A stretch of DNA of 64,000 nucleotides from a virus. Location: IMG/VR virus record IMGVR_UViG_3300037247_001602, positions 30,489-94,488 of that record; one strand, given 5' to 3'. Below, piece after piece: positions 1,874-41,747 of the stretch. Below the pieces are notes generated by a model. That model saw nothing but the letters and a program-made list of their open reading frames with translations. It made no database searches and was not told the DNA's origin. The translations under genes and the position numbers were made by a program. Every line of letters begins with the position of its first letter. Within the stretch, counting starts at the first letter, position 1.

Positions 1874-3856
1874 ATGGCTGATCAAAGCCAATTCAATCTC
1901 GTCCGGCGTCGGGGTAATTTCAATTACCCTAGCCCGTACTTCGATATTTCCTCTACGTATGTTCCGCCGTCAGTCAAGGAACTGTTCAAGTGGTGCCGCT
2001 TCTTCTTTTACTCCCATTCGATCATTAGTCCGATTATCTACAAGATTTCGGAATATCCAATCACAGGACTGATCTATCAGAGCGTCGAATCTGATCAACC
2101 CCTACCTGAGCAGGCTAAGAGCAAATGGAAGACGCTGCTTGAGAGCACTCTTAAACTGAAGTCCAGACAGATCGAGATTCTTCTCGATTATAATACCTAC
2201 GGCAACGCATTCCTTTCGATCTTGTATCCGTTCAAACGCTATCTTGTCTGCGAGAAATGCGATACCAGATCAGCCATTGAGAAGACCTCCTATAAGTGGA
2301 AAGACCTGAAGTTCTACGGAGAATGTCAGAAGTGCAACCAACAAGTCGAATTCCAGATCAACGACGTAGAAGTCAAGAATAGATCGCAATGCCGTCTTAT
2401 TCGCTGGAATCCGTTCAATATAAGTATCGATCACTGTGGACCCACGGATGAACGAGTCTATGTATACAAAATCCCGTCCAAGGACAAGAAGTCCATTATT
2501 GCCGGGAAGAAATTTTGGATTGAACGCGCTCCATATGTCTTCATTGAAGCTGCGCGAAAGAACCAGGATATCGAACTAGATCCGAACAATCTATTCCACT
2601 TCAAGCGTCCTTCGATCGCCGATAATGATATGGGATGGGGAATGCCGATCGTTCTCCCTGTCCTGAAGGACGCCTATTGGCTTCAGATTCTACGTAAGGC
2701 GAACGAGGCGATCAGCCTGGAGCATATTGTCCCGTGGAGAATTATCTTTCCTGCGGCCAACGCAGATGCATCGCCTTATGTCAATCTGAACCTGAATTCT
2801 TGGAAGAATCAGATCGAGAAGGAGGTCAGGCGTTGGCGCCAGGACCCGAACCATATCTCGGTCATGCCGCTCCCGATCGGGAATATCAGCTTCGGTGGGG
2901 ATGCCAAGCTGCTTCTGGTTTGGCAGGAAGAGAAACTTATGCAAGGCCAAATCGCAGGTGGCCTTGGAGTTCCTCTCGAATTGGTATTCGGCGGACTCAC
3001 GTGGTCTGGATCATCGGTATCACTACGAGTGCTAGAGAATCATTTTCTCACAGATAGGGAATTGCTCGATGAATTCGTCAACGAATTCCTGATCCCGCGC
3101 CTGACGCGATATTTCCGGCTGCCGAAACTCAAAGTCAAGATGATTGAGTTCAAGATGGCCGATGATGTTCAGCAGAAACAGTTGGCCATGCAACTCAATC
3201 AGGCAGGGAAACTATCAGATACAACTCTTCTTGGCCAGTCGGGGTTCGACTTCGATGATGAAGTAAAACTCAGAAGGGCCGAGCAAATTCAGCTTATTGA
3301 GATGCAGAGAAAAGCCCTGATGCAACAGGCCGAACTTCAAGGAATGACACAGGTTGTCGGAGCCAAATACCAAGCTGTTGCTCAACTCGAAATGTCACGA
3401 GCGCAAAATGTGGCGAATCAGGAGGCCATGGAGGGGCAGTATGAATTCCAGAAAGGCGTCCAACAGGAACAGCAACAGCAGGCCACGCAGCAGATAGCCA
3501 TCGATCAGGCGCAAGGGCAGCAGGGCCAGGGGAAAGGCCAACAGTCGGCAGTTCCCATGGCACAAGGTGGTGTCGTCTCAGGACAAAAGCCAGGACAAAA
3601 GCCAGGGCAGAAATCAGATCAGAAGCCGGGCCAGATGCCGACGGTAAATACCATGGATATGGTTCGCTCCTGGGCACAGGGATTGATGTCACTACCAGAG
3701 GAACAGCGTGAGATGGCGCTCGGTTCCTATGAGCAAGAACACCCTGAGACAGTCGCGCTGATCCGTCAATTCATGAAGGAGATGTTGAAGCAGACGGCAG
3801 ACATGAGACCAAACCCAGAAGTAAAACCTCCAAGAAGAAAGAACACAACAGTCTAG
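1874..3856 (+). CDS. portal protein, with Zn-ribbon insertion and Q-rich C-terminus
   Basis: Portal-like patterns: YGNAF, LFHFKRP...WGMPIVLPVLK, IAGGLGVPLELVFGG; CEKC...CQKC insertion; head-gene context. Confidence 0.7.
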   Translation: MADQSQFNLVRRRGNFNYPSPYFDISSTYVPPSVKELFKWCRFFFYSHSIISPIIYKISEYPITGLIYQSVESDQPLPEQAKSKWKTLLESTLKLKSRQIEILLDYNTYGNAFLSILYPFKRYLVCEKCDTRSAIEKTSYKWKDLKFYGECQKCNQQVEFQINDVEVKNRSQCRLIRWNPFNISIDHCGPTDERVYVYKIPSKDKKSIIAGKKFWIERAPYVFIEAARKNQDIELDPNNLFHFKRPSIADNDMGWGMPIVLPVLKDAYWLQILRKANEAISLEHIVPWRIIFPAANADASPYVNLNLNSWKNQIEKEVRRWRQDPNHISVMPLPIGNISFGGDAKLLLVWQEEKLMQGQIAGGLGVPLELVFGGLTWSGSSVSLRVLENHFLTDRELLDEFVNEFLIPRLTRYFRLPKLKVKMIEFKMADDVQQKQLAMQLNQAGKLSDTTLLGQSGFDFDDEVKLRRAEQIQLIEMQRKALMQQAELQGMTQVVGAKYQAVAQLEMSRAQNVANQEAMEGQYEFQKGVQQEQQQQATQQIAIDQAQGQQGQGKGQQSAVPMAQGGVVSGQKPGQKPGQKSDQKPGQMPTVNTMDMVRSWAQGLMSLPEEQREMALGSYEQEHPETVALIRQFMKEMLKQTADMRPNPEVKPPRRKNTTV

Positions 3857-10580: not shown

Positions 10581-10728
10581 GTGAATTCTCCTGGCGAAAT
10601 TAGTTTATGAAATAGCGCGAGCCACCTGGATGATCCAGATGACTCGCGCTACCCGAACCAGGAGGCGCTTGCGGGCAAAGGGCTCTAGGCCTGCTTCTTG
10701 TTTTTTTCGCCTTCTGGGGGGGGTGCTG

Positions 10729-11106
10729 CTAGGCAGCCTTCTTGCTCTTCTTCATCTGTTCGACGGTCTCGCTGAGGCTCTCGAAGGAGTTCTTCAGGCC
10801 TTCCGCCAACTCGGCGAGATCGGTGACCGTCTTGTGCAGATCGGGCTGCTCGCCCTTGCCATCGGTCTCCGTCTCGGTCGTACCCTCTTCCTTCGCCTTC
10901 TCGGAGGAGGTCCAGTCGGCCACCTTGTTCGCGACGTACTGGACACCCTTGGCGGCGCCCAGAACACTCAGGTAGATGGCGCCCCCGACACCGGCGACGA
11001 TGGCGAGGCCCAGGCCGGCTGCGGCGCCCGCCTCCGCCACTTCACCCGTCATCTCGAAGAAGCCGATCTCAGCCGTCACTTTCCCCTTCTCGTCTCGAAT
11101 CTTCAT
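10729..11106 (-). CDS. GC-rich membrane-anchored hypothetical protein
   Basis: ATG at 11106 follows AGGAGGAG; one Gly/Ala transmembrane segment and a coiled C-terminus. Confidence 0.7.
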   Translation of the reverse strand: MKIRDEKGKVTAEIGFFEMTGEVAEAGAAAGLGLAIVAGVGGAIYLSVLGAAKGVQYVANKVADWTSSEKAKEEGTTETETDGKGEQPDLHKTVTDLAELAEGLKNSFESLSETVEQMKKSKKAA

Positions 11107-11194
11107 GGTTTCTCCTCCTTTGCCATGACAATGATGTGTAGGCAAGCCCTGCACCGTGCAGGACTTACAAGACTACACTTCTCTCGGTACTTTT

Positions 11195-11202
11195 CTTATA
11201 CC
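11195..11202 (-). promoter_or_regulatory. phage early promoter motif GGTATAAG (representative copy)
   Basis: Exact or near copies lie upstream of minus-strand units at 8928, 10153, 11195, 36194, 36385, 37080, 39061, 39120, 41652, 52420, 54443, 55111 and 61227. Confidence 0.7.
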
Positions 11203-11222
11203 GGATTTGGGCGTTGATTTTC

Positions 11223-11250
11223 TTGATTGTAAACCCTTACCATATATAAT
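11223..11250 (+). promoter_or_regulatory. sigma70-like promoter of the RNAP operon
   Basis: TTGATT-N16-TATAAT, 35 nt before the ATG. Confidence 0.6.
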
Positions 11251-11285: not shown

Positions 11286-14200
11286 ATGCTCGACTTCGAA
11301 GCTCAGGCTAGGAACAGCGAGAAGAGTCTCGTCGCCGCCATCAAGGCGATATTCCCCTATGCCGGGAAGAAGCAGACTCTCATTGCAGAGCGTATTTGGA
11401 TCGACAAGGAAGCACGAACTTTCGGGGACTTTGGTTCTCAGAAAGAGGTGAAAGGCAAAGATAAAACTTGGGCAATGCCGATCTACGGCAAGTTTCGCCT
11501 CGTGGACAACGCCACCAATGAAGTCATCGATCGGATCGACAAGATGACCCTGGTGAACCTGCCTCTGGCTACCGCTCGCGGAAGCTATATCGTGCGCGGG
11601 AGCGAGTACCAGGTCGCCAATCAGTTCCGCCTGAAGCCGGGCGTCTACACAAGAATCCAGCAGAACGGAGAGCTTGAGTCCCAGGTGAATCTGGCGAAAG
11701 GCATGAACTTCAGGATTCTCCTGGCGCCCAACTCCGGGATCTTCTTCATGAAGCTGGGGGAGACGAAGATACAACTCTATCACCTGCTCACGGCATTCGG
11801 CGTATCCCGCAGCGCCATAGAATCGATATGGGGACCGGAATTGACAGCCAAGAATTCCAAGAAAGGAAGCCAAGATGGCGAGGTTAATAAAGCTTACAAG
11901 ATCATATTTAGGAAAGAACCGGAAAATCTAGCAGAGGCGATTTCGAGCCTTGAGACTTACTTTGCTGGCAATGTGATAGATCGGAGCACGACGAAGCTCA
12001 CGCTGGGCAAGGGATTCAAGAACGTCAACGCAGATCTATTACTGAGGACTTCTGCAAGGATATTATCTGTCTCTCGCGGAGAGGATAAGGCGGACGACCG
12101 GGACTCCCTGGAATTCAAGCAGCTCTTGTCGGTGGATGATTTCCTGAGAGAGCGCATCGATAAGAATGCGAATAAGATCAAGTTCAAGATGCGTTTCAAC
12201 ATCGATCGCAAGGACAACATCCGGGAGATTATGGGTCTTTCCACGTTCAATTATCCGATAGAGAGCTTCTTCACGGGCGGGGCAGAAGCATTCGGCGGCA
12301 ATACGGGGCTGTCCAGCACGCCTGAGCAGACGAATCCCCTGCATATGCTCTCGGAGACCTCGAAAGTTATCCTGTCGGGCTCCGGAGGGATCACCAACCC
12401 ATATCAAGTTACTGTCGAGGCCAGGGCCGTCCATCCATCCACCATGGGCTTTGTAGATCCCGTGCACACGCCGGAGTCGGATCGCATAGGTACAACACTT
12501 CAGCTTCCTCTTGGCATCAAGAAAAAAGGGCAGAAAATATTGGCGGGTTTCTATAGTGTCAAGACTGGGAAGGTAGTTGATCTAGCCCCCGATCAGGCTG
12601 CGGATTCAGTCGTTTCTTTTAGAGATCAGTATGACGAGAAGAATGGCAAGTTGAAGCCTAAAACACGGAACGTAAAGGCCTCTGTGAAAGGCAAAATATC
12701 CATAGTCCCAGCAAATGAAGTCGAATATGTCATCCCGTCGCCGCAAGCTATGTTCGGGATAGCAACAAACATGATTCCTTTCTTACAAAACGATCAGGGC
12801 AATCGCGCCATGATGGCTGGCAAGATGATGACGCAGGCGCTCCCTCTGGTAAATAGAGAAGCCCCTCTCGTCCGCGTCGTGGCTGGCAAAGGCGTGGTCT
12901 TCGAAAGTGTTGCCGGCCAGGGATTCTCGCACAGAGCGCCAGTATCCGGGACTATCACGAGCGCAACCGAGAAGGAAGTCGTAATCAAAGGGGCGGACGG
13001 CAAGCGCCATACCGTGTCTCTGTACGACAATTTCCCACTCAACTCAAAAACAGCATTCATCGATGCGGAAGTTGTCGTGAAGAAAGGAGATAAAGTCAAG
13101 AAAGGGCAACTGCTTGCCGATACGACATTTACGAAGGATGGAGACCTTTCGCTTGGAATCAACGCAACTGTCGCATATATGCCCTTCAAAGGCTATAATT
13201 TCGAGGACGGAATCGTCATCAGCGAGAGTTTCTCTAAGAAATTCACATCATCGCACCTCTACAAACTTACGACTTCAATAGACAAGCAGACTCTGATGAA
13301 CCTTGCCAAGTTCAAGGCTTACTATCCGGAAGCTCTGGATCTCGCTTCGGCCAGCCGACTCGACTCGGATGGCGTCATCAAGAAAGGCGAGATCGTGAAG
13401 TTTGGCGACACGGTAATGTCCGTATTGAGGAAGGAGGAGAAAGGCCCGGAGGATCTGATTCTTGGGAGACTGCACAGAGCATTCATTAAGCCGTACAAGA
13501 ACAAGTCGGTGTTATGGGAGGAGGAGGACGAGGGCGAAGTTGTCGATGTTATCAAAACGGCGAGGAAGATCGAGGTTCATATCCGTACTGCCGAGCCAGC
13601 GAAGATTGGCGATAAGCTGGCCGGCAGGCACGGAAACAAAGGCACGATCACTTTCATCGGCGGAGATGCCGAGATGCCCACTACGGCAGATGGCGAAGTC
13701 ATTGAAGTCCTTTTGAATCCCCATAGCATTCCTGGGAGAATCAATCCAGGCCAGATCCTCGAAACGGTTGCAGGCAAGATTGCCGACAAGCAGGGCCGGC
13801 CATTTGATGTGCGTAACTTCACTGGCAGAAATTATTTGGAGGACGTGGAGAGAGCCGCAAAGAAGGCAGGCGTTCAAGACAAAGAAGATCTCGTCGATCC
13901 GGTGACGAACCAGAGACTTCCTGGCGTTCTCGTCGGAAAGCAATATATGCTGAAGCTGGACCACCCGACGAGGAAAAAATTCTCTGCTCGCGCCCAGGGG
14001 AGTTACACAGCCGACTTGCAACCATCTCGTGGTAAACACGAGGGCGGGCAGTCGATGGACACCCTGACGCTCTACTCGATGCTGTCACACGGAGCAAAAG
14101 CAAACCTGAGAGAAATGGCCACGTACAAATCTGGGCGTAACGATGAAGTATGGCGCGCCCTCCAGCTTGGCCAAAGTCTTCCGGCTCCCGCTGTTCCTTT

Positions 14201-17200
14201 TGCCACCGAGAAATTCATCTCGATGGTGAAGGGTCTTGGCGTGGACGTGAAGAAAGACGGGAATACCCTGGCCCTGTCTCCGATGACGGATAAGAAGATC
14301 CTAGAATATAGTTCTGGATCTATCAAGAATTCAAAGATTGTGCGGGGCAAGGATCTGAGGCCGGAAAAGGGCGGATTGTTTGATCCGATCATCACGGGCG
14401 GTGTTGCGGGCACGAATTGGAATCATATCGAACTAGCTGAGCCGATGCCGAATCCGATATTTGAAAACGCGATCAAGGCTATCTTGGGAATCACGGGAAC
14501 AATCTACGAGGATATTATTTCCGGGCGGCGTTATGTGACTCCGGATGGACAAATCGTTCCTGAATCCACTGATGAGACGGAAACGGGTGGTATCGGCATC
14601 AAGATCTTGCTATCCAAGATCGATATGGACAAGAAGATCAAGGAGCTGTTGGTCCAAGCCAAGAAGAAAAAAGGCGCCGCCCTGGACAAGATCAACAAGG
14701 TTATTCGTTACCTGACAGCGCTCCAGAAGAATGGACTCAAGCCGACTGATTATATCATCAAAAACATACCCGTGATGCCGGCTCGTTTGCGCCCTGTCTA
14801 CCCGCTTCCGGATGGGAGCCTGAACGTAACCGAGGTGAACCATCTCTATAAGGATCTGATTGATCTGAGCGATCAGAATCGGGACTTTATAGCCCTGGAT
14901 ATGCCCGACCAAGATATAGCCCCGCTGAGGGAGAATGTCTACAAGGGCATGAGGGCTCTCGTCGGCCTGCAAGACCATCTCGGCGGAAGGGGATACAAGG
15001 GACTCATCGAGCAGATAAGAGGCAACACGAACAAGGAGGGATTCTTCCAGAACCGTATCATGAGCCGTCGCCAGGAATTCTCAGGGCGATCAACCATTGT
15101 CCCTGAGCCTGCCCTTGGCCTCGATGACGTAGCCATTCCCGAAGAGATGGCCTGGAAAATATATCGTCCGTTTATCGTCAGGGAGCTGGTTCGCCAGGGC
15201 TACAAAGACAGCGCCCTAGAGGCAAGGGAGGAGCTGGACAAGAAGACCCCCTTGGCTATGAGAGCCTTGCAGATAGCTATGGAAGACCGGCCTGTGATGC
15301 TCAACCGGGCTCCGTCGCTGCACAAATTCAGCATTATGTCATTCATGCCACAACTCACCACGGGTAAGGCAATTAAGATAAACCCCTTGGTGGTAAAGGG
15401 TTACAACGCAGATTTTGACGGGGACACAATGGCCGTCCATGTTCCGATCACAGAAGAAGCACGAAACGAATCGTTCAAAATGCTGCCGAGCAGAAATTTA
15501 TACAACCCGCGAAGCGGCGAACTGATGAACTATCCCACTCAGGAGGCGATTACCGGACTCTATCTATTCACGCAGAGCCCGAAGGGCAGAGCAACGCTCA
15601 ATGCCATTCTCCCTGCGGCGAAATACCACATCAAGGGACCATTGACTGCCAAGGAGATGATAAGCGTTCTGGATCGGATCTCGAAGGAAATGCCGAACCA
15701 ATTCACTAAAGTCGTCAATGCACTCAAAGATATTGGGAATAGAGCATCTTACGAAATGGGATTTTCTGTCGGTCTTGAAGATCTCAAGATGGATTATTCC
15801 TCCAGGGATAGGATATTTAACGAGGCCGAAAACGCAATCAAAAAAGTGAAAGGCGACAAGACACAAGCAATCATCGATGCTTATACAAGTGCGGCGAAGA
15901 AACTCGACGTAGCTCTTCTTGGGGACAAGCGACTAAGAGCCAACTCCTTCATGATTATGGCCAGATCTGGCGGGAAGGGAAATATAGGCCAAATCAGACA
16001 GATCTTGGCTGGGCCTGTCCTCGTCAAGGATGTTCATGATCGCACTATTCCGGTTCCGATTAAGAAATCATATTCAGAAGGGTTGGACTTGGCGGACTAT
16101 TGGGCGTCAATGGCTGGTGCCCGAAAAGGTATGATTGACAGATCCCTGCAGACTTCTATCCCTGGTGCATTCGCCAAGGAACTTCTCAATGTTACCGTGA
16201 ATCACGTCATCTCGATAGCTGACTGCAAGACTACACGCGGCGTTGAAATCCCAGTGGACGATTCTGACATTCTGGATCGTTATCTGGCGCGAGGGATCAA
16301 GGACGTAGCCAGAAGAAACTCGATCGTGACGGCATATGTGATCAAGAAGGCCAGAAAGAATAATGTGAAGACCCTGCTTGTCCGAAGTCCGCTGACTTGT
16401 GAGGCCGAACAGGGCGTCTGCCAAAGATGTTACGGGCTCTCGGATAATGGGAGGCCTCCTGAAATCGGGACGAATGTTGGAGTGGAGGCTGGCCAATCAA
16501 TGGCGGAGCCTGCCACCCAGATGGTTATGCGCAGTTTCCATACGGGAGGAGCCGCAGGAATGGCAGGCGGGATCGTATCTGGATTCACGAGAATCTCCGA
16601 TCTCCTGAAGATGCCCAAAATCCTGAAAAATAAGGCAACTCTATCCCGAGAGTCCGGGAAAATCACGAAGATAGACACCTCTCCGATTGGAGGATGGAAT
16701 GTCTGGGTTGATGACGAAGAGCACCATGTGCCTGCCGGAAGACGAGTTCTTGTCAAACAAGGCCAAACAGTCTCGATGGGCGACCGCCTCAGTGATGGCC
16801 CAATTAAGCCGCAGGAACTTCTCGAACTACGAAACATGCGTGAAACACAGGATTATATTGTAAATTCGCTCAAGGATGAATATTTGAATCAAGGCATCCA
16901 AATGAGGCGCCGCGTCCTGGAAACAGTCGTCCGCCCGCTGACAAATTCAGCCAGAGTAACGCATCCGGGTGGACACGAGGCATATGTGCCCGGCGATCAT
17001 GCCCCACTGACTATTCTCGATGCATATAACCGCAAAGCTAAACCTGAAGACAAGATCGAATATGAACCGATTATTCGGGGAATCAACACGGCGCCCTTGG
17101 CGAGCCAGGACTGGATCACGAGGTTGAATTTCCAGCGCCTCAAAGAAACGCTCATCGAAGGCCCCGCGCAAGGCTGGAAATCTGATATTGCCACAATCGG

Positions 17201-17306
17201 TGCACCCCTGGCCGCATATGCATATGGTCCACTGATCGGAAGAGAGCGCGAAAAAGCTGCTGAAGATACTGCCCAACTAGAGGAGATTGGCAGTGTCTCA
17301 GAATAG
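11286..17306 (+). CDS. rpoBC: single-chain fused beta-beta' DNA-directed RNA polymerase
   Basis: Beta motifs: HTPESDRIG, IPFLQNDQGNRAMM, GYNFEDG, GDKLAGRHGNKG, YMLKLDH. Beta' motifs: HIELAEP, NRAPSLH, NADFDGD (15405-15425), RSPLTC..CQRCYG, QSMAEPATQMVMRSFHTGG. Confidence 0.97.
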   Translation: MLDFEAQARNSEKSLVAAIKAIFPYAGKKQTLIAERIWIDKEARTFGDFGSQKEVKGKDKTWAMPIYGKFRLVDNATNEVIDRIDKMTLVNLPLATARGSYIVRGSEYQVANQFRLKPGVYTRIQQNGELESQVNLAKGMNFRILLAPNSGIFFMKLGETKIQLYHLLTAFGVSRSAIESIWGPELTAKNSKKGSQDGEVNKAYKIIFRKEPENLAEAISSLETYFAGNVIDRSTTKLTLGKGFKNVNADLLLRTSARILSVSRGEDKADDRDSLEFKQLLSVDDFLRERIDKNANKIKFKMRFNIDRKDNIREIMGLSTFNYPIESFFTGGAEAFGGNTGLSSTPEQTNPLHMLSETSKVILSGSGGITNPYQVTVEARAVHPSTMGFVDPVHTPESDRIGTTLQLPLGIKKKGQKILAGFYSVKTGKVVDLAPDQAADSVVSFRDQYDEKNGKLKPKTRNVKASVKGKISIVPANEVEYVIPSPQAMFGIATNMIPFLQNDQGNRAMMAGKMMTQALPLVNREAPLVRVVAGKGVVFESVAGQGFSHRAPVSGTITSATEKEVVIKGADGKRHTVSLYDNFPLNSKTAFIDAEVVVKKGDKVKKGQLLADTTFTKDGDLSLGINATVAYMPFKGYNFEDGIVISESFSKKFTSSHLYKLTTSIDKQTLMNLAKFKAYYPEALDLASASRLDSDGVIKKGEIVKFGDTVMSVLRKEEKGPEDLILGRLHRAFIKPYKNKSVLWEEEDEGEVVDVIKTARKIEVHIRTAEPAKIGDKLAGRHGNKGTITFIGGDAEMPTTADGEVIEVLLNPHSIPGRINPGQILETVAGKIADKQGRPFDVRNFTGRNYLEDVERAAKKAGVQDKEDLVDPVTNQRLPGVLVGKQYMLKLDHPTRKKFSARAQGSYTADLQPSRGKHEGGQSMDTLTLYSMLSHGAKANLREMATYKSGRNDEVWRALQLGQSLPAPAVPFATEKFISMVKGLGVDVKKDGNTLALSPMTDKKILEYSSGSIKNSKIVRGKDLRPEKGGLFDPIITGGVAGTNWNHIELAEPMPNPIFENAIKAILGITGTIYEDIISGRRYVTPDGQIVPESTDETETGGIGIKILLSKIDMDKKIKELLVQAKKKKGAALDKINKVIRYLTALQKNGLKPTDYIIKNIPVMPARLRPVYPLPDGSLNVTEVNHLYKDLIDLSDQNRDFIALDMPDQDIAPLRENVYKGMRALVGLQDHLGGRGYKGLIEQIRGNTNKEGFFQNRIMSRRQEFSGRSTIVPEPALGLDDVAIPEEMAWKIYRPFIVRELVRQGYKDSALEAREELDKKTPLAMRALQIAMEDRPVMLNRAPSLHKFSIMSFMPQLTTGKAIKINPLVVKGYNADFDGDTMAVHVPITEEARNESFKMLPSRNLYNPRSGELMNYPTQEAITGLYLFTQSPKGRATLNAILPAAKYHIKGPLTAKEMISVLDRISKEMPNQFTKVVNALKDIGNRASYEMGFSVGLEDLKMDYSSRDRIFNEAENAIKKVKGDKTQAIIDAYTSAAKKLDVALLGDKRLRANSFMIMARSGGKGNIGQIRQILAGPVLVKDVHDRTIPVPIKKSYSEGLDLADYWASMAGARKGMIDRSLQTSIPGAFAKELLNVTVNHVISIADCKTTRGVEIPVDDSDILDRYLARGIKDVARRNSIVTAYVIKKARKNNVKTLLVRSPLTCEAEQGVCQRCYGLSDNGRPPEIGTNVGVEAGQSMAEPATQMVMRSFHTGGAAGMAGGIVSGFTRISDLLKMPKILKNKATLSRESGKITKIDTSPIGGWNVWVDDEEHHVPAGRRVLVKQGQTVSMGDRLSDGPIKPQELLELRNMRETQDYIVNSLKDEYLNQGIQMRRRVLETVVRPLTNSARVTHPGGHEAYVPGDHAPLTILDAYNRKAKPEDKIEYEPIIRGINTAPLASQDWITRLNFQRLKETLIEGPAQGWKSDIATIGAPLAAYAYGPLIGREREKAAEDTAQLEEIGSVSE

Positions 17307-19314
17307 TTTGGACAGAATGCTTCTCATGCTCTCTGGCGATACACTTCAAGAGAAAATCGCGCAGTCAATCGTTGCGCCCACGCTTCAAGATACCAAAATC
17401 GAAACGGAGAAGATCGAACCAGGTCCAGGATTGAAAGAGGGCGTCCAGCTTACCCCGGCACAGATTGATTTCTCTAGATTCATCGCAGACCGTCGTGGGA
17501 TCGGAATCGCTGCTTGGAAACCTGGCGCCGGAAAGACACTTGGTACAATCGCTGCATTCCTGAATCTGAGGGCTCGGGGAGAGGCCAAGAAGGCAATCGT
17601 ACTTGTTCCCGCTTCATTGCGAGTGAACTTTGCTGAAGGAGGCGTCACTAAATTCACAGATGCCCAATATGGAATCATCGGGAACAAACAAGAAGCCGCA
17701 TCTTTCGCCGACATGGATGTTGAGCGCATGGGAGAGAAGGATTTTTATATCATCTCCCATGATATGTTTAGGGCTAACTCCGATTATTATTTGCAGAAAA
17801 CCGGCGCCGATACGGTCATCATGGATGAAATGCACCGTGTCAAAGATCCGCAATCCGTATTAAATGACGTAATCGAAAAGGTTGGCCCTACTGTCCGGAA
17901 TTTCATCGGCGCTACAGCAACGCCAGCAATGAATAAGCCCTTCGAGGCGATCGAGCTGAAAAATGTAATCAGTTCTCCCGAGGAACGATTCACGGAGAAG
18001 CAATTTACGCAAGCATTCATCGAGCGCGCTCCAAGAGATTTCTGGGAAAGAGTCCGAAGCTTGTTCGGAGGTAAACGCACCGGAGAGATCAAAGGATTCA
18101 AACGAAGGAAAGAGTTAGCCGAGCTGTTAGGTCGAACATTCCATTTTGCCGACCCTAAAGTTAAAGGGATGCCGAAGAAAGACGTTCAAATCATCGAAGT
18201 TCCGATGACCCCTACTCAGGAACAGAATTATCACGCGATCTTGAAGAAGAAACTGAACAGGCGCGAGCAACAGATTCTACGAGAGGGACAACTTTATCCT
18301 GATCGTGAAATGATCAAGATCCTCAACAAGGCCATGGCGACGCGCCAGCTATCAAACAACGCCAGGTGGGTTGAGGGCGATTTGCCAGAAAGAGCGGGAG
18401 CCGAAACGCCCAAAATACTGAGAATGACGAGAGACATTGAAGATCATATTAAGAGGCGACCTGATGCACAGATCATCATCGCATCGAACTTTGTTGGGTC
18501 TGGCGCGAAACTTATGGAGGCCATGCTCAAGCAGAGGGGTATATCATTCGGGAAATACTACGGGAAAGGCCAGGAGGGAATAACAGGGGAAACGAGAGAA
18601 CAGGCGATCAAGAACTATAACGCCGGCAAAGTCAAGGTTATGCTCATGACCGGCGCTGGCGCCGAGGGGCTGGATCTTCCGAATACGACGATGCACCTGA
18701 CGATGGACCCCCACTATAATCCCGAGAGAATCACTCAGCAAGAGGCTAGAGGAATCCGTCGTGGCGGGCAGGCTCATATTCCTCCCGAGAAGCGCAAAGT
18801 GATCGTGAAGCGCTATATATCAGTTCCCAGACAGGGATTCTCGATCGAGCGATCTATCTACCAGATCGCCGCAAAGAAGAAGGCCTTAGTCGATCAGCTA
18901 AAGCAGATCGGATTGGAAGCCCAGCAGGAGAGAGCGAGAAGAGATCCTGGACGCAGAAGGGCATTGGCCTTATTCTCTAGGCGCCAGCAGAAGCCTCAAT
19001 TACCCCAGGAGCCTGAGCGTCCCAAGCAGCCCATGATGAAAGCCGCTGGGAACGGGGGATATCTGAATGCTCGTGGTAATTTCGATGAGCACACAGTCCG
19101 ATTAATCGGTGGATCTCAGGCCGCATTCAATGTGGATTCAGGGGATACAATCGATCGAAAGTTCCATGCGCAAACTCGACTTGGGAAGTGGAGCAAGCGG
19201 AGAAAATCAACCTTGACGGGCAAGGAGCAGGCCCGGATGCGATTTACCGGGAAGACGGAAGGTAACCTAGGCCCGAACGAAAATGCCCAGCCGATAACAC
19301 GAGTAGGCTACTGA
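17287..19314 (+). CDS. SNF2/SF2 helicase-ATPase
   Basis: Walker A PGAGKT, DEMH, ATATP, GAEGLDL and QQEARGIR motifs; QEKIA near the N-terminus (true start may be GTG 17293). Confidence 0.9.
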   Translation: MAVSQNSLDRMLLMLSGDTLQEKIAQSIVAPTLQDTKIETEKIEPGPGLKEGVQLTPAQIDFSRFIADRRGIGIAAWKPGAGKTLGTIAAFLNLRARGEAKKAIVLVPASLRVNFAEGGVTKFTDAQYGIIGNKQEAASFADMDVERMGEKDFYIISHDMFRANSDYYLQKTGADTVIMDEMHRVKDPQSVLNDVIEKVGPTVRNFIGATATPAMNKPFEAIELKNVISSPEERFTEKQFTQAFIERAPRDFWERVRSLFGGKRTGEIKGFKRRKELAELLGRTFHFADPKVKGMPKKDVQIIEVPMTPTQEQNYHAILKKKLNRREQQILREGQLYPDREMIKILNKAMATRQLSNNARWVEGDLPERAGAETPKILRMTRDIEDHIKRRPDAQIIIASNFVGSGAKLMEAMLKQRGISFGKYYGKGQEGITGETREQAIKNYNAGKVKVMLMTGAGAEGLDLPNTTMHLTMDPHYNPERITQQEARGIRRGGQAHIPPEKRKVIVKRYISVPRQGFSIERSIYQIAAKKKALVDQLKQIGLEAQQERARRDPGRRRALALFSRRQQKPQLPQEPERPKQPMMKAAGNGGYLNARGNFDEHTVRLIGGSQAAFNVDSGDTIDRKFHAQTRLGKWSKRRKSTLTGKEQARMRFTGKTEGNLGPNENAQPITRVGY

Positions 19315-20054
19315 TGCTGATTGAGAAGATAGCTGTTTTTGGGGTCCGCGCTCAGGCACAAGTGCTGAAAGCCTTCAAGCGCAGGGCGCTACCTAAACAA
19401 TGGTATCGTAGGGTGGGCAAACCTTTAGTAGGCGTTGAGGGCCCTATAGGGGCTGCGTCGGAATTAGAAATGAAAAGAGCAACGAGAGCTGCCAACATGT
19501 TTGCTCCCATTCTTGGAGTGCCTCGCCTGAAATATGTAACTGCTCCGCACATTGGAAAAGCCTGGACTGCTGGAAAAGGAGATACTGTAACCCAACTAAC
19601 CAATTTCGTGTCTAAACATCGTCCTTCACGCGGAAAAACCTTAAGATCAATTGTTAAGACCATGAAACCTGAAGATCGGAAAGCGGTCAATGCGATCATT
19701 AAGGCTCATGAACTAGATGAACTTAATATACCTCTGAAACTACGCGAGAAAGGATATTTGGGCGCACTTGAACATTCTGGATTTGAAGTCATGTTTAGAG
19801 AAAGCAATAGAGTCAGGGCGCTTCCAAAAAGAATGAAGGCGGCTAAAACATTCATGAAAGAACTTCATCGGGGAACTACGGATGAACTTGCACTGAAGCC
19901 GGTTCCCGGATTCAGATATGGAGAGACAAAAATAAACAGATCGGCCAGGCGAAGGGCAATGGCTATTATTGTTAGGCATGATGAGGCCATACTAGAAGAT
20001 TATTCAAAATGGAGCGCATATATAAAGAAGCTTACGGAGATAAAAAAGAGTTAG
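19314..20054 (+). CDS. basic IEKIA-tagged protein with HELDE motif
   Basis: Begins MLIEKIA; AHELDE...LEH resembles a variant metal-binding motif. Confidence 0.7.
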   Translation: MLIEKIAVFGVRAQAQVLKAFKRRALPKQWYRRVGKPLVGVEGPIGAASELEMKRATRAANMFAPILGVPRLKYVTAPHIGKAWTAGKGDTVTQLTNFVSKHRPSRGKTLRSIVKTMKPEDRKAVNAIIKAHELDELNIPLKLREKGYLGALEHSGFEVMFRESNRVRALPKRMKAAKTFMKELHRGTTDELALKPVPGFRYGETKINRSARRRAMAIIVRHDEAILEDYSKWSAYIKKLTEIKKS

Positions 20055-20096: not shown

Positions 20097-21518
20097 ATGA
20101 ACTTTATCGAGAAAATAGCAAGGCGCAAACGCAAGAAGAAGGAATTTGCGCCTGGACTTCCCAGAAGAGAGCAGACGACGAATCCTCCCGTCACAGAAAA
20201 GCCGAAAATATGGGCTTCTGTTATTCAGCGACACGACGCCAGGCGAGCCGGAACTCATTTTGATTTCCGTCTTGGCGATCTAGAGACTGGGATAGGCCAC
20301 TCCTGGGCGATGCGTAAGCTTCCTGGACCTGGCGAGAAAGTCCTGGCTATCCAACAGCCCGATCATACGATCCCCTATTTCAAATTCACAGGCGAGATCC
20401 CTGTCGGTTATGGCGCCGGCGAAGTAGGGCGCCACAGCCTGCTCGACGCAGAGGTATTGGAATCCGATAAGAATCGTGTCATTTTCAACCGCTATGACGG
20501 GCGCGATACGCACGAATACGTCCTTCGCCGAATGGACGACAAGCATTGGCTCCTCATCAATCGCACTCCAACAGCCAAGTCAGAACCAATGCCTGAATCC
20601 AAGCCCAAATACAAAGAGATCAAGCCCGGCCAGGTTGATCCGAAGGCCCCAGGCAGATGGGATGCCAAGATCGACGGTGCGTCTCTGAACTATGTCATCC
20701 ATGATGGCAAGCCTATTCGGGCTTTCTCGTATCGCCGCAGTAGGCGAGGGCCGGCCCTGATCCAGCATACGCAACGAATTCCTACTCTACAGGGCGAGAA
20801 GGCACCCAAAGGGTACAAGAGGACGATCCTGAGAGGTGAAGTCTGGGCCACGAATCCCAAGACGAAGAAGGCGATTGAAGCACGGGAACTGGGAGCCTTA
20901 TTGAATTCTCATGTGCTGAGATCACGCAGGCTTCAGGAATCGAAAGGAAAACTTAAGAATATTATCTTCGACATTGTCATGCACAAAGGCAAGAATGTCG
21001 AAGGATTGCCTACGGAAGAAAAGCGCCGCCTGATCGACGAGGTGATCAAAGATTCCAGATTCAAGGGAATATTCGAGAAGCCGTCTTCTGCCACGACACC
21101 TTCTGCGAAAATGAAACTCTTCGAGAAGATCCGCAAGAAACAACACAAACAAACGAAGGAAGGAGTCATCATCCATTCCCCTGAAGGCGTGATGACGAAA
21201 GTGAAATTCAAACCCGAATGGGACGTTGAGATCTCCGGCATCTTCACGAAGCCTAAATCAAAGGCCAAGGGGCAAGCGGGAGGATTCACCTATCGCAAGC
21301 TAGATGGCAAGAGGATAAGCAGGCTGTCCCGTGTAGGAACAGGATTCAGTCGCAAATTACGCGAAGCGATGTATGAGAATCCGGAAGACTTTGTCGGCGT
21401 AGTAGCCAAAGTCACAGGGATGGAGCAGTATCCTTCTGGCGCGATCCGCACCCCTTCTTTCGTTGGATGGCATTTAGATAAGAACGAGCCGGCCATGATT
21501 CCGGAGATCAAAAAGTGA
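20097..21518 (+). CDS. LigD-like 3'-phosphoesterase fused to ATP-dependent DNA ligase
   Basis: PE domain: QRHDARRAGTHFDFRL, SWA, LAIQQPDH, YGAG. Ligase: KIDG, RGEV, FDIV, EGVII, KVK and OB-fold RVGTGFS. Confidence 0.9.
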   Translation: MNFIEKIARRKRKKKEFAPGLPRREQTTNPPVTEKPKIWASVIQRHDARRAGTHFDFRLGDLETGIGHSWAMRKLPGPGEKVLAIQQPDHTIPYFKFTGEIPVGYGAGEVGRHSLLDAEVLESDKNRVIFNRYDGRDTHEYVLRRMDDKHWLLINRTPTAKSEPMPESKPKYKEIKPGQVDPKAPGRWDAKIDGASLNYVIHDGKPIRAFSYRRSRRGPALIQHTQRIPTLQGEKAPKGYKRTILRGEVWATNPKTKKAIEARELGALLNSHVLRSRRLQESKGKLKNIIFDIVMHKGKNVEGLPTEEKRRLIDEVIKDSRFKGIFEKPSSATTPSAKMKLFEKIRKKQHKQTKEGVIIHSPEGVMTKVKFKPEWDVEISGIFTKPKSKAKGQAGGFTYRKLDGKRISRLSRVGTGFSRKLREAMYENPEDFVGVVAKVTGMEQYPSGAIRTPSFVGWHLDKNEPAMIPEIKK

Positions 21519-21688: not shown

Positions 21689-21750
21689 AGCAAGCCGGCT
21701 TACTGCAAGCAAGGCGCGATATGAAACTTATACCGGAACCATCTTGAATG

Positions 21751-21778
21751 TTGACAATTGTAGCACATGAGGTAGAAT
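21751..21778 (+). promoter_or_regulatory. sigma70-like promoter with TGTAGCACA spacer element
   Basis: TTGACA-ATTGTAGCACATGAGG-TAGAAT; ATG 8 nt downstream (possibly leaderless). Confidence 0.7.
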
Positions 21779-21786
21779 CCTAACCT

Positions 21787-22902
21787 ATGGCAACGCCGCT
21801 ACATACAGCGCAGAGATTCGGATCGGATCGCCCGACTGAAGATCCGTACAATCAGTCGGCTACGCCGTTCCTGGAAGGGATTATCCGTGATGTGGATTCC
21901 GAGAAGTGGACATGTGAGGTTAAGACACTAGGCCTGGATCAGTCCCTCCAAGATGTCCGGATCATGTCGCCATATTTTAATTTTACGAATGGCCATGGAA
22001 TGTTCCAAATTCCAGAAATCGGCTCAATGTGCGTGGTTAGTCGCACGCAGTCTGATTGGTTCGTTGTCGGTTTCATACCGCCTTCCGATGTGGATGATAC
22101 TGAAGGTACGGAATCAGATGAGGCCACGACAGGCAGCCAGAACCTATCAGAGCCCTTCCTGGGCCAGGTAGCGGCCATTCAGAGCCGGCTACTAAAGCAA
22201 GAGCAAGGGGGAAACGGAATACCCAAACGGCACTCATTCAGATCTAACCGCGAAGGAGATATGATCCCTGGAGACGGATGCCTGAAAAGCCGGGCCGGAA
22301 ATAAATTCAAATGGTTTACAAATGGGAATCTTCTGGCCGAAGCATCGAAACTCTGCCAGAGAATATGGTCCCGATTGCAGAATCAGATCATAGATATTGC
22401 CGCCCGTTACAGTCTGCTCACTCCTGGAGTCCAGAAAGAGATCACCGTCTCTGATGAAACGCGGGAAGTCCTTGAGACGATTAAAGTTAGAAGAAAGACA
22501 GATGACGATACGCCGCAGATACAAATCAAGAGAGGATTCATCAATGGCCAAGAAGTCTATGAATTTATCGTTCAGGACAATAGCGGCGTAAAACACAGAA
22601 TCACCATTGGGACCGATGGTGAGCGCCTAGTCACAATTGGAGATCCCTCTTTCCCGGCAGTTAAGATTGAATCGAAACCATCAGGTGAGTATAATCTCAC
22701 CGCGACTACAGCGGTCAAAGTAGACGCTCCAAGCGTCATCGTAGGCGTGACAGGAGCCGAGGACTTTCTCGTGAAACTGAGTTCCTTGCTCGTCAAGTAC
22801 AACGCTCATACGCATAATGGGAATTTGGGGGCTCCGACTGGGCCAGTTCTTTCTGGTATCCTTGATAGTTCAGATGGAACGACAAAGCTGAGAGGCGGAT
22901 AG
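21787..22902 (+). CDS. baseplate central spike (gp5/gpV-like)
   Basis: N-terminal OB fold (GIIRDVD..IPEIGSMCVV..WFVVGF), a beta-helical region, and an apex HTH (YNAHTH) metal motif. Confidence 0.75.
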   Translation: MATPLHTAQRFGSDRPTEDPYNQSATPFLEGIIRDVDSEKWTCEVKTLGLDQSLQDVRIMSPYFNFTNGHGMFQIPEIGSMCVVSRTQSDWFVVGFIPPSDVDDTEGTESDEATTGSQNLSEPFLGQVAAIQSRLLKQEQGGNGIPKRHSFRSNREGDMIPGDGCLKSRAGNKFKWFTNGNLLAEASKLCQRIWSRLQNQIIDIAARYSLLTPGVQKEITVSDETREVLETIKVRRKTDDDTPQIQIKRGFINGQEVYEFIVQDNSGVKHRITIGTDGERLVTIGDPSFPAVKIESKPSGEYNLTATTAVKVDAPSVIVGVTGAEDFLVKLSSLLVKYNAHTHNGNLGAPTGPVLSGILDSSDGTTKLRGG

Positions 22903-25491: not shown

Positions 25492-25683
25492 ATGGCGACG
25501 ATTATAGGCACTCAAACATCCGAGACCCCCAAAGATAAGACTGTAACCCTGAAAGGAGAGGCGGTCCTGAATCCTGCGGACGCAGCATTACAGATCGATA
25601 TTCCTATCGATCATCAGGCTCCAACCGGAAGGCGACTGAAAGTATCGTGGACAGTCACGATTCTTGAAGAGGATAATACTTAG
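25492..25683 (+). CDS. hypothetical protein
   Basis: AAGGAGG RBS; 63 aa. Confidence 0.65.
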   Translation: MATIIGTQTSETPKDKTVTLKGEAVLNPADAALQIDIPIDHQAPTGRRLKVSWTVTILEEDNT

Positions 25684-26153
25684 TGAGGGTTATTGAGAAA
25701 ATCGCTGATGCACCGAAGGCAAAGAAGAATCTCCAAGGCTCTCTTCCGAAGACCTGGGGAGTTCTCTATGCACATCCAAATCCAGACGGGTCCCGCAAGA
25801 AGTGCGACAATTGCATGATGTTTATTTCTGGCGAGAAGCAATGCGAAATCCATGATATAAACATTGTCGTTACGAAAGAGGATGTTTGTGGCTACCATGT
25901 TTACGGCAAGACGCATCCCAAGCGGATGCACAAGCCTGACAATGTTCACCTTCAGGCCGTGGACCCGAAGCATAGCGGACTGGCGAAAGTCCCTGGCGGG
26001 ACTTCGTGCGGCACATGTGAATACTTTAAGAACTCGAAGAACGGGAAGGGGACGTGCATCGTTGTCCAGGAAGGGGTTGGAGAGGATGAATCGACGGGCA
26101 AGCTAGCCACTGTTGAAGCACTTGGATGTTGCGCAAGATGGAAATCCAAATGA
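25683..26153 (+). CDS. IEKIA-tagged protein with two HiPIP-like 4-Cys domains
   Basis: CDNCMMF..C..VCGYH and CGTCEYF..C..GCCARW. Confidence 0.65.
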   Translation: MRVIEKIADAPKAKKNLQGSLPKTWGVLYAHPNPDGSRKKCDNCMMFISGEKQCEIHDINIVVTKEDVCGYHVYGKTHPKRMHKPDNVHLQAVDPKHSGLAKVPGGTSCGTCEYFKNSKNGKGTCIVVQEGVGEDESTGKLATVEALGCCARWKSK

Positions 26154-30392: not shown

Positions 30393-33300
30393 GGATCACC
30401 TCTCTTCGTCTGGCAGTTTGGCGCAAACAGGGCAAGCCAAACCGATGAGTTCATAGCTATCGGAATCTACCTCTCTCCAGCCATCCGCATAGAGACGTTT
30501 TGCTAGTTTGTTGCCTAAATTTATGGAATCAATGAGGCCGTAAGGAATCATTCCTTCATCTTTCTCTTCACAGAACACACACTCTGCGTTCGCGAGTAGG
30601 AAGAAATCGATATGTTCGCGAATTAGTTTGATTCTTTCATGCTTTTTGGGTGAAGGCCTGCCGCCTTTCTTGGCCTTTTTCTTCTTCTTTTTAGCCATAA
30701 CCTTGCTCCTTCGCACGTGCCCGCACGGTTTTCGAGCGCTTGAGAGCCTCCTCCTGCGTTTTGTATTCGAATCTGCCTTCTTCCTCAAACTCATCGACGA
30801 GATCTCGCAGTTCTCTATCCGATGGAAACCAGTTGTATGGCGTTCCATGGCTCGTTAGAATTTGGATCGCATGCCATATATTCGCCTCGAATAGATCCAG
30901 GCGCTTTGTGTCCTTGTCTCGCTCTGCATTCTTGAACGAGACGCCGATACCGATACCTATGAGAATGGACAGTGGAATCAAAAACACCATATCACTCCTC
31001 CTTCCTCGCTCTCTCATGCTCCTTTATCTCGCGCAGTTGTCCTTCCGAGGGTTTAACCAATTTAGTTCTGTCTTTTGGAGGCAATTTCAAGAAGCAGCGT
31101 ATACACATCAAGGCCTCGCCACCTGAGTGGATTAGACTGGCCTTGCTGGCCCAAACGTCTTTCCTACATGTGTCGCATTTCTTGATGAGGCTGCCTCCCG
31201 CTACATGCTCAAGAGGTATGTCAGCCACGCGATGGCAAACCAGAACTGATTTTTCTGTCATTCTTAAGCTCCTTATACCGTTCTCATTGGTCATCTAACC
31301 TGTTTGGTTCGTGTTTGATGATGGCGACTGCTCTATGTCTAAACACAGCCACGTATCTTTCGCCCTCATATTTGATCTCGTAGATTTTGTAATCCCCCAC
31401 TGTGCCAATTAGCTTGGCCTGGGCTGGCTGTTCATTAATAATGTTCGGTTGAGACTTCTCGGTAGCATTCAGCGCTAAAGCCAATCCGAATCCCAATATG
31501 GCAATCAGCGAGATGCTTAGAAGGGCCTTTGCTACATAATTGTCCATGTTATCCTCCCATGAAACTCTTGATGATGTGCCAAATGAATGAAATGAAGAAG
31601 GCCAGGGCGCCGATGCTGACTCCGCAGGATGCTATTATTGCCATGGCCGATCCGACTATGACCGCGCCAGGTCTCTTACCTTCGAATGCCACTATGATCA
31701 CTGCTCCCAGTAGACCTAGCACAAGCGAACTTGTAATTGTGATAGCCGTCCATTTCATCATCATCGCAGAAGTTACTTCTTCCATCGTCTTACCCCTCTC
31801 TTGTACTTAGGTGACAACCTCGTCTTGCTCCACCTGGTTTTGGAAGAACTCAACCACCTCGTTATATACTTTCTCTGGATTATCAGGCTCCAAAATACAG
31901 AAGAACTCGCGATCTTCCCAGTAGATTTCGACGCCCAACTCCTGGGATAGATGATCATCATAGGTATCTTCCAAGCCTTCATCCGCGATATTCTGTGGCG
32001 GAAATTCAGGGAATTCGATCGTGACATTTCCATCTTCAGTGAGCGAAATTGTCGGGTCCCAACCCGATTGCTCATCGAATCCTTCAATCGTCTGGCTTTT
32101 GCTGACCATTTTGATCTTCCTTTTTTCCGTTGGTTTCAGGTTCTCCAGCATCTGATTTTCATTGTTCTCGATGAACTCTTCGAGTTCATGATAGATTTCC
32201 CTCTCAACATCCATAATTAGCCGGACGAACAATCGGCGCCTGTCCATGGAACAGAATTGTCCAACAAGCCTTTTTATAATGCTGACTCTGGCAGATTGGA
32301 TGAGTTGATTTCCATGCATATTTACATATTCTTTGAAAGCGCCTTCGACAATCATATTCACAAAATTGCGAATCTTCTGTTCGGCCTGAGGACGCCCTTG
32401 GCGCTGAATCAATTTGATTCGTTCATTTTTCTTTCTCAGAATATATTTAAGTCTTTCTACTTCCTCTTGCGGATTTTGCGGACTTGCGGGGCTTTGATCC
32501 ATTTTCTCCTCCTTGAACGCACTGCGGATCATCATATCGCCCAGCGCTATGTTCAGAGCGTCAGAAATGCCTGTCTTTTGGGGATTACGCATTGGCCATT
32601 GCCTCCAGTGTCTCGCCCAGGACAGCATCCAGATTCATACTGATGGCCATAGGCTCTTTCGTATACAGAATCTGGAGCTTCCGCTTGGCATCAGCAGACA
32701 GACGTAGCGAAGCGTTCAGCATGATCTCCAGCAGGGCGGCATCGGAACCAAAGGCATCCTCTTCGAGGTACTTGACATAGGTCCGCTGCGCTGGCAGAGG
32801 CACCGGCATTTTCTCTTGCTTGGACGTTGTGACTGCACGAGAAAGAGCATCATCGATGGCTCTTGGCAGCTTGTTCGGATCTGTGAGATTCATGGTGTTT
32901 CTCCATATCCGCCAGCATCTGCCGGCGCTCTTCTTCTAGTTTCTCTTTGTCGATGCCGAGGAACTCCAAGATCAAGTCCTCGCTCTTGGCATTTGCGGGA
33001 GTCAGCCATTTACAGCCTGGCTCAAAGTACGCCAATTCGTAGGCCTGATCGCGCTCTTCTGTCAGCCACACCATAAATCGGCGTAGATCCTTTATATTTG
33101 AGTGGCGCAGCTTTTCGGTTTCGGGGTAACTGGGCATCAGTCCTCCTTCTTCACCATCAGGCCTTTGATCACAGCCACTAGATCAGAAATGTCCAGCCTG
33201 CGCCCGAACTTCGTCGTGAAAAGTGAGCTTTGCAGGTAGTCCGTAATCTCGCGATCGAGAAAACCGTCGGCGAACATAGAGGCAATCCATTCGGCAAGTT

Positions 33301-41609: not shown

Positions 41610-41747
41610 TTACATCTCCTTTCTCGACTTATGAATAGTTCCTTCAGTAGTCTTATACCCGGATTGGTTGCTGAAATAGTCTGGACAATCGGGCGCACCT
41701 AAGTTATATTAGGTTCCCACGAAGTGTAAGTAGAGTAAGTAGGCGGG

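Follow-up and report, generated by a model that had tools for sequence, protein, structure and literature searches.

We report here that a phage genome fragment encodes, in one protein chain, a compact RNA polymerase of bacterial type in which the beta subunit is fused end to end to a beta' subunit lacking the N-terminal zinc ribbon. The fragment is a window of 64,000 nucleotides (positions 30,489 to 94,488) of the IMG/VR record IMGVR_UViG_3300037247_001602, a contig of 94,488 bp from an uncultured phage of a marine-sediment metagenome. Its completeness according to CheckV is 52%, which fits a full genome near 180 kb, the size of the genomes of its relatives. We consider that this polymerase is probably the catalytic core of a transcription enzyme proper to the phage, one that would depend on a sigma factor and would be packaged and injected. 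Ranked by falling confidence, the components of this explanation are independence from the host together with rifampicin insensitivity, absence of a need for alpha and omega, use of a phage sigma and, lastly, packaging and injection.

One open reading frame encodes fused beta and beta' subunits

The gene and the parts of its product are the following (E. coli residues are given by alignment; aa, amino acids):

11286-17306, plus strand: single-chain beta-beta' RNA polymerase gene (P0001), one uninterrupted open reading frame (ORF) of 2006 aa
11286-14249, plus strand: beta moiety, aa 1-988, collinear with a minimal bacterial beta
12303-12389, plus strand: rifampicin-pocket region, with nearly every contact residue substituted
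13446-13484, plus strand: beta flap-tip helix, aa 721-733, retained; docking site of sigma region 4
13608-13643, plus strand: beta active-site motif GDKLAGRHGNKG, aa 775-786; K777 and K785 correspond to E. coli K1065 and K1073
14229-14300, plus strand: fusion junction, made of the beta end KGLGVDV, then KKDGNT, then the beta' sequence LALSPMTDKKI
14250-17303, plus strand: beta' moiety, aa 989-2006, without zinc ribbon and SI3
14400-14423, plus strand: GVAGTNWN, aa 1039-1046, eight residues replacing the Cys4 zinc-binding domain
14832-14963, plus strand: beta' clamp helices, a coiled coil at aa ~1183-1226, retained; docking site of sigma region 2
15405-15425, plus strand: catalytic NADFDGD, aa 1374-1380, with the Mg-binding Asp triad D1376, D1378 and D1380
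16224-16430, plus strand: second zinc site, C1647, C1705, C1712 and C1715, retained

The ORF starts with an ATG, 7 nucleotides downstream of GAGAAGG, and the N-terminus of the protein agrees with the consensus M.(F)D..QF...FP..GK of a family of relatives that is described below. Pfam recognizes Rpb2_3 and Rpb2_6 within aa 347-918 and, on the beta' side, Rpb1_1 to Rpb1_5 within aa 1113-1785. By HMMER, aa 53-984 align with residues 69-1050 of a cyanobacterial beta (E 8e-90), and the beta' part aligns with beta' from Thermus, Clostridioides and Bacillus (E ~1e-116 to 1e-110). In addition, AlphaFold (AF2) models of the two halves were built separately from 38-row family alignments. Both reached a mean predicted local distance difference test score (pLDDT) of 83.8, with a predicted template modelling score (pTM) of 0.80 for beta and 0.71 for beta', and their top Foldseek matches are bacterial beta (TMq 0.78-0.80) and bacterial beta' (TMq 0.81-0.86), respectively. 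Both double-psi barrels are intact, as are the bridge helix and trigger loop, and the Asp triad of NADFDGD is invariant in 41/41 family rows and 32/32 bacterial rows. A preliminary description of this DNA, made from the letters alone, had proposed a compact single-chain beta-beta' RNA polymerase of bacterial type in which all the catalytic motifs are present; the 2006-aa ORF, Pfam, HMMER and the models agree with it, as do NADFDGD at aa 1374-1380 and GDKLAGRHGNKG at aa 775-786.

In the alignment, the residues opposite KGLGVDV (14229-14249) are those with which E. coli beta naturally ends (SLGINIELEDE), and the beta' part, in which LALSPMTDKKI lies at 14268-14300, is short of the N-terminus of E. 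coli beta' by 9 residues only. The fusion is therefore a direct end-to-end one, with no linker, just as had been claimed for the region of about 14240-14290. The junction, G(V/I)(D/N)V-K..G, is kept in 85/85 aligned family members.

The N-terminal Cys4 zinc finger of beta' is indeed deleted, as first noticed, and both the alignment and HMMER agree on this point. GLFDPIITG (aa 1030-1038) is followed by only 8 residues and then by HIELAEP, which begins at aa 1047; HMMER pairs beta' residues 8-52 with residues 9-53 of Taq beta' and residue 58 with Taq residue 91. The segment 67-98 of E. coli beta', which carries C70, C72, C85 and C88, is a gap in 41/41 family rows, and all four cysteines of the ribbon are present in 31 of the 32 bacterial rows. 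This deletion, too, is kept in 85/85 aligned family members. The ligands of the second zinc site correspond to E. coli C814, C888, C895 and C898 and are the sole cysteines of the whole polymerase.

When the protein is mapped on the E. coli subunits, beta is found to lack the insertions i4, i9 and i11, some 25 residues at its start and ~50 aa of the lobe (362-419), and beta' to lack the zinc ribbon, a few short loops and SI3, the insertion of the trigger loop. Because the missing parts are lineage-specific insertions, short loops, a segment of the lobe and the zinc ribbon, this polymerase is as compact as a minimal bacterial core from which the ribbon has been taken away.

The rifampicin-pocket region carries, in E. 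coli numbering, the substitutions Q513S, F514T, D516E, H526E, R529K, S531I and L533S, and it is conserved inside the phage family in a form unlike that of bacteria. The hot spots of rifampicin resistance are well established. Since nearly all the residues in contact with the drug differ, the polymerase is predicted to be insensitive to rifampicin.

The polymerase belongs to a phage family that stands apart from the sampled bacteria

A search of a collection of 5.8 billion proteins gave at least 120 protein clusters related to the polymerase, with 39-75% identity. Among the clusters listed, nearly all are fused beta-beta' proteins of ~2000 aa, reaching 2300-3000 aa where inteins are inserted, on contigs of up to 191 kb, and the closest homologue is P0002, with 75% identity. 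In IMG/VR, at least 253 stretches encode a relative. Members of the family turn up widely in metagenomes, those of marine and sediment origin included, and several of its contigs of 160-180 kb were binned into bacterial metagenome-assembled genomes (MAGs) of unrelated phyla. Its only cultured members are Salmonella phage Arash and the Vibrio phages D69, D148 and D181.

Trees of beta' were computed with FastTree on 91-95 rows and with IQ-TREE (LG+C20) on 42 rows. Besides family members, the rows comprised other viral beta'-like proteins, giant-virus outgroups and 32 bacteria, which represent at least 10 phyla and include lineages of the Candidate Phyla Radiation (CPR); no Helicobacter or Wolbachia sequence was among them. 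In both trees the family is one clade (support 99-100), the bacteria form a clade of their own (96-100) and the family is not nested among the sampled bacteria. Arash and D69 cluster with the window protein at 100% in FastTree and 99% in IQ-TREE LG+C20. No bacterial beta or beta' exceeds ~30% identity, as against 34-75% within the family. The bacterial sampling being limited and biased, and the branches long, these trees do not separate a deep origin from fast viral evolution.

The subclade of Arash and D69, in which the polymerase is split, is nested among fused members, and for this reason the beta-beta' fusion is probably ancestral and the split secondary. At the base of the family lies a pair, L017 (IMGVR_UViG_3300000172_000001) and L024; in the former, beta' is a separate ORF of 1030 aa, and in the latter the ORF for beta and the N-terminal part of beta' has just 1257 aa. 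These forms may be secondary fissions or frameshifts.

Two further observations concern the family at large. Inteins or LAGLIDADG homing endonucleases (PF14890, PF14528, PF03161) occur at more than one site of the polymerase and account for the length of 2300-3760 aa reached by many members; examples are P0003, P0004, P0007, P0014, P0017 and P0020, as well as L026, L033, L047, L061 and L121. The copy in the window is intein-free. The IMG/VR proteins L052-L058, L060 and L063-L068, which are beta'-like and 770-1420 aa long, make up a separate, well-supported viral clade; its weak affinity (80) is to the fused family and not to bacteria.

A phage sigma factor is expected, alpha and omega are not

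We found no gene for alpha, omega or sigma either in the window, as already noted in the preliminary description, or in the whole 94.5-kb contig, which is 52% complete. For sigma, the contig gave nothing with the Pfam models of regions 2 and 4, with Arash gp10, with the sigmas of five relatives or with a profile made from them; this absence is accounted for by the contig being about half a genome. Arash gp10 has a Pfam match to Sigma70_r3 (9e-9) together with a weak, sub-threshold signal for region 2. Homologues of gp10 are present in all five near-complete relatives (95-100% complete, 178-196 kb), one of which, G002, is a member of the window protein's own subclade. Furthermore, the profile of the relatives' sigmas matches the structures of RpoS and SigA at 1e-13 across regions 2-4.

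Structure prediction had been suggested as a check on whether the surfaces that bind sigma persist, and both the flap-tip helix and the clamp helices do. At the flap tip the alignment pairs PEDLILGRLHRAF with PEEKLLRAIFGEK and the model shows a helix at 721-729; the clamp helices are found in the AF2 model at residues 195-215 and 220-238 of the beta' part. We also predicted the complex of the relative G003, in which its own sigma is placed on the clamp helices of its own beta' with a score of 0.74, the best of three controls scoring 0.00; this mark is reached by 58/80 solved complexes and 2/110 mismatched pairs, which are rough counts, custom alignments having been used. At least 37% of contacts are common to the G003 runs, the partner pLDDT is at least 72, and the predicted interface joins beta' residues 186-233 to sigma region 2. 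As this interface is textbook-like, the pass shows likeness to solved holoenzymes and not binding by this copy.

From these sequences and models we infer that the polymerase uses a phage-encoded sigma70-family factor. The initial idea of a possibly sigma-independent enzyme is not supported, given a sigma70-family gene in 5/5 relatives and in Arash and docking elements that are kept. The sigma factors of the host are probably not used. In E. coli, R275 and E295 of beta' are needed for the binding of sigma70; both are invariant in the 32 bacterial rows sampled, and both are Leu in the window protein and hydrophobic in most of the family. Host sigmas would fit poorly since these contacts, invariant in bacteria, are replaced.

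Two observations concern other sigma candidates. The ORF at 21787-22902, downstream of a DNA ligase gene, was tried as a hidden sigma because in the relative G004 the homologue of this ligase lies directly upstream of the sigma gene; it was rejected (hhalign probability 0.2%). A second sigma-like ORF, weak in G001 and G002, has no homologue in this contig.

Alpha (PF01000) was detected in 0/5 near-complete relatives and omega (PF01192) was above cut-off in 0/5, with positive controls in 14/14 genomes. The polymerase is predicted to need neither of them. For alpha, independence had been proposed from the start; the five near-complete relatives lend it support, this support being the absence of the gene.

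A strand-specific promoter-like motif is shared with Arash

Around the start of the polymerase gene, and elsewhere in this phage and in Arash, the following sites were found:

11223-11250, plus strand: sigma70-like promoter TTGATT-16-TATAAT, ending 35 nucleotides before the ATG, 10/12 matches
11195-11202, minus strand: promoter-like motif GGTATAAG, directed leftward, back to back with the polymerase promoter
11195-11250, 21727-21778 and 41652-41710, with a further one on the contig at -815 to -757 relative to the window, both strands: back-to-back promoter pairs
3433, 3616, 3894, 13467, 14966 and 15243 in L001 (Arash 124156-140565), minus strand: copies of GGTATAAG

The polymerase gene heads its own rightward transcription unit. 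The score of the site at 11223-11250 is reached by 1% of shuffles of the upstream 150 nucleotides, and similar sites precede other plus-strand blocks (-785, 21751, 25648, 41682, 44597); four such sites are paired back to back with a minus-strand GGTATAAG. Over the contig, sigma70-like sites are not enriched (18, vs 15 in shuffles), and no conserved one was found upstream of the polymerase gene in 13 relatives. The sigma70-like promoter of the preliminary description is thus present in this phage, with 10/12 matches, and was not recovered in those relatives.

The minus strand of the contig has 18 copies of the motif GGTATAAG and the plus strand two, with ~1.4 expected on either strand. These copies precede minus-strand genes, mostly small ones without assigned function, although an HNH endonuclease and a dUTPase are encoded among them. 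The exact 8-mer is also found six times on the minus strand in 16 kb of Arash, each time upstream of a minus-strand gene; the motif is thus common to this phage and to the distant Salmonella phage, and it also adjoins the polymerase gene in G001 and G003. It resembles an extended -10 element in which G replaces the near-universal T at -7. The explanation that suits it best is a cognate promoter of a holoenzyme shared by these phages, an assumption whose chances we put at about even; what speaks for it is that GGTATAAG is common to phages whose polymerases are 34% identical, one of them infecting Salmonella. If the assumption is right, non-structural genes would depend on the phage enzyme, which would favour its delivery with the particle.

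Three details of these sites may be added. The Arash copies are followed by a conserved GTGTAAAC-like stretch. In the divergent pairs, the minus-strand GGTATAAG is followed, 24-30 nucleotides on, by a plus-strand promoter made of a TTGACA-like -35 and a -10 box, and by their sequence the paired promoters would share their -35 regions. Lastly, a plus-strand ORF of 195 aa at 10630-11217 overlaps a minus-strand one at 10729-11106; the former is probably not a gene, in view of a minus-strand AAGGAGGAGAAACC-ATG at ~11106, of GGTATAAG at 11202-11195 and of the negative local GC skew.

Gene neighbourhood and particle proteome

The neighbouring genes of interest are:

1874-3856, plus strand: portal protein, Arash gp204 homologue, its gene linked with the polymerase gene in most family loci
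17287-19314, plus strand: SNF2-family ATPase, Arash gp217 homologue, its start overlapping the polymerase stop
20097-21518, plus strand: ATP-dependent DNA ligase fused to a LigD-type 3'-phosphoesterase domain
390-671, 1560-1871, 17287-19314, 19314-20054, 20097-21518 and 25683-26153, plus strand: proteins with (I/Q)EK(I/V)A near the N-terminus

The polymerase gene is flanked by phage genes for a portal, a Mu F-like head protein, a terminase and the SNF2 ATPase. The portal, the SNF2 ATPase (27% identity with gp217, E 2.5e-34), the large terminase and two structural proteins of the contig are homologues of Arash proteins. Where a family locus extends far enough upstream, the portal gene in most cases ends within ~1.5 kb of the polymerase start; here it lies 7.4 kb upstream on the same strand, with other genes and a strand switch between. 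The adjacency of the SNF2 and polymerase genes is not conserved in most family loci.

Arash particles were purified by sucrose gradient and then pelleted, and their proteome was described by spectra (PMC10585845). Among all the proteins detected, the polymerase protein gp206 gave the most spectra (3516, above the major capsid protein), and 1210 were obtained for gp216, 1148 for SNF2 gp217 and 467 for sigma gp10, spectral counts not being equal to copy numbers (PMC10585845). On this analysis, packaging of the polymerase in the virion is somewhat more probable than its absence from the particle. The virion polymerase of the preliminary description accordingly gains plausibility from the proteome of a 34%-identical relative and from the linkage with the portal, and loses one of its supports, the C-terminal EKAA (aa 1989-1992), which had been taken as a sign of packaging. 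EKAA is not conserved, and we rejected it as a mark of maturation or packaging because most family members end in ...FGKGKEGKY.

A motif of another kind, (I/Q)EK(I/V)A, occurs in the first 30 residues of six plus-strand proteins, including the SNF2 ATPase and the LigD-like ligase, and four of them begin M-x-x-I-E-K-I-A or M-x-I-E-K-I-A. About 3 matches to EK[IAVL]A would be expected anywhere in all the ORFs. This type of N-terminus could be a tag for capsid targeting or for processing; the polymerase itself has no N-terminal IEKIA tag.

A working model and its alternatives

In the model that we favour, the polymerase would transcribe the phage genes independently of the host polymerase, the covalent fusion of beta to beta' possibly replacing the role of the alpha dimer in assembly. 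A phage sigma70-family factor, whose gene is expected on the missing half of the genome, would find the promoters after docking on the retained clamp helices and flap tip. The holoenzyme would be made late, together with the head proteins, packed into the capsid and injected, and would then start early transcription, probably from the strand-specific, extended -10-like GGTATAAG promoters. A bolder version of this model would have a minimal, orthogonal holoenzyme of two polypeptides, beta-beta' and a small sigma, which would assemble with neither alpha nor omega, have no use for host sigmas, be resistant to rifampicin, enter the cell with the DNA, read GGTATAAG throughout the family and descend from a lineage older than the radiation of the sampled bacteria; taken as a whole, this version remains speculative and we are inclined to doubt it.

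Several observations weigh against the favoured model. This contig has no sigma gene, so that only its relatives give grounds for assuming one in this phage, and the enzyme might make use of host alpha. Across 60 family loci, the bias of GGTATAAG is modest (21 minus vs 6 plus, with ~13 expected per strand). A long-branch artefact, caused by rapid viral evolution, could account for the place of the family outside bacteria. As to packaging, the preparation of Arash particles yielded 116 proteins, among them ribonucleotide reductases and RNA ligases, and the authors allow for carry-over of abundant proteins (PMC10585845). Each near-complete relative has a single polymerase gene, whereas phiKZ has separate virion and non-virion sets, and the polymerase gene has a sigma70-like promoter, from which the host enzyme could just as well express it early.

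These last points are those on which a non-virion polymerase can be defended. In that case the host enzyme would transcribe the gene early, from the promoter directly upstream at 11223-11250, the phage enzyme and its sigma would take over the middle and late genes with a T7-like logic, and the abundance of the polymerase in Arash would be carry-over; the particle proteome includes many non-structural enzymes, and its authors name carry-over as an alternative (PMC10585845). However, the Arash polymerase exceeds the major capsid protein in spectra and is detected together with sigma and SNF2 (PMC10585845), in most family loci the polymerase gene stands close to the portal gene, and the gene in the window shares strand and promoter type with blocks of virion genes (-785, 21751, 41682, 44597). 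Moreover, GGTATAAG would serve non-structural, early-looking genes, which would need the phage enzyme before its gene is expressed. We therefore regard a non-virion polymerase as rather unlikely, while giving it serious consideration. A self-sufficient chain that recognizes promoters without sigma, alone or by means of the adjacent SNF2 ATPase, has in its favour that no sigma gene is seen in 94.5 kb, that the zinc ribbon is lost and that the SNF2 gene overlaps the polymerase stop. But the contig is 52% complete, 5/5 relatives and Arash carry a sigma70-family gene, the docking elements are retained, the predicted G003 complex scores 0.74 against 0.00 for its controls (a sign of likeness only) and the SNF2 adjacency is not kept in most family loci, which makes such a chain very improbable. 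Finally, general similarity to bacterial subunits, and the binning of some family contigs into bacterial MAGs, might point to a recent capture of host rpoBC, to an assembly chimera or to bacterial contamination. We give this practically no credit: identity with bacterial beta and beta' is at most ~30% as against 34-75% inside the family, family members have kept both the junction and the deletion, the flanking genes are phage-type and homologous to those of Arash, and the phylogeny, which the preliminary description had put forward as a check, places family and bacteria in separate supported clades and rules out recent capture and chimerism.

Relation to known polymerases

The closest described system is that of Arash (gp206 and gp216, sigma gp10, SNF2 gp217; OQ632216, PMC10585845), which with D69, D148 and D181 shares the clade, the fusion point and the deletion of the ribbon. 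Arash also has the homologous portal, SNF2 and terminase, and in both phages GGTATAAG lies upstream of genes on the opposite strand. In Arash and D69, however, beta' is split after the catalytic barrel, giving a protein of 1525 aa (beta and the N-terminal part of beta') and one of 606 aa (the C-terminal part), whereas the window chain is unsplit; their identity with the window protein is 31-35%. The portal gene, 7.4 kb upstream of the polymerase gene in the window, is adjacent to it in Arash.

The phiKZ/AR9-like enzymes are likewise phage-encoded, of the two-barrel cellular type and without alpha or omega (PMC7598289, PMC7824862). One of their polymerase sets is packaged in virions for early rifampicin-resistant transcription (PMC7598289, PMC7824862), and an SNF2-type helicase is genomically linked to their polymerase genes (PMC7824862), as is the SNF2 gene here. 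They differ in having 4-5 polypeptides that are far more divergent, two paralogous sets and no sigma homologue by sequence, whereas the family of the window has a single chain, alignable over its full length to the bacterial subunits, one copy per genome and, in relatives, a canonical sigma70-family protein. The unbroken ORF, the single gene per relative and the sigma of the relatives thus set the window polymerase apart from the phiKZ/AR9 type.

In Helicobacter and Wolbachia, beta is fused head to tail to beta' at the natural termini as well. These bacterial RpoBC proteins still have the zinc ribbon, work with alpha2 and omega, and belong to the phyla of their hosts; the phage family, in contrast, has no ribbon and makes up a clade apart from the 32 bacterial beta' sequences that were sampled. 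The Kleczkowskaviridae phages of Rhizobium (for example RHph_Y65), of ~200 kb, also have bacterial-like large subunits. Their beta' is a separate protein of 1127 aa, with 35% identity to proteobacterial beta' and 24.5% to the window protein, and it falls outside the family clade, in a different lineage nearer to bacteria.

The enzyme is an uncharacterised variant of the phage-encoded cell-type RNA polymerases, and its family is already in public databases under generic names. We did not find it in the reviews on multisubunit phage polymerases PMC7598289, PMC7824862 and PMC13282480; as far as we could find, what has been published on it is the annotation and particle proteome of Arash (PMC10585845).

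Cell-type RNA polymerases of phages are known mainly from the phiKZ- and AR9-like giants, in which they are fragmented and divergent; the family described here represents the opposite design. As it has four cultured members, the predictions made above are directly testable. If the enzyme works without alpha and omega, it would be the simplest bacterial-type holoenzyme known. It would then offer a natural test of the need for the alpha dimer, for omega and for the zinc ribbon of beta', and would be a candidate orthogonal transcription module.

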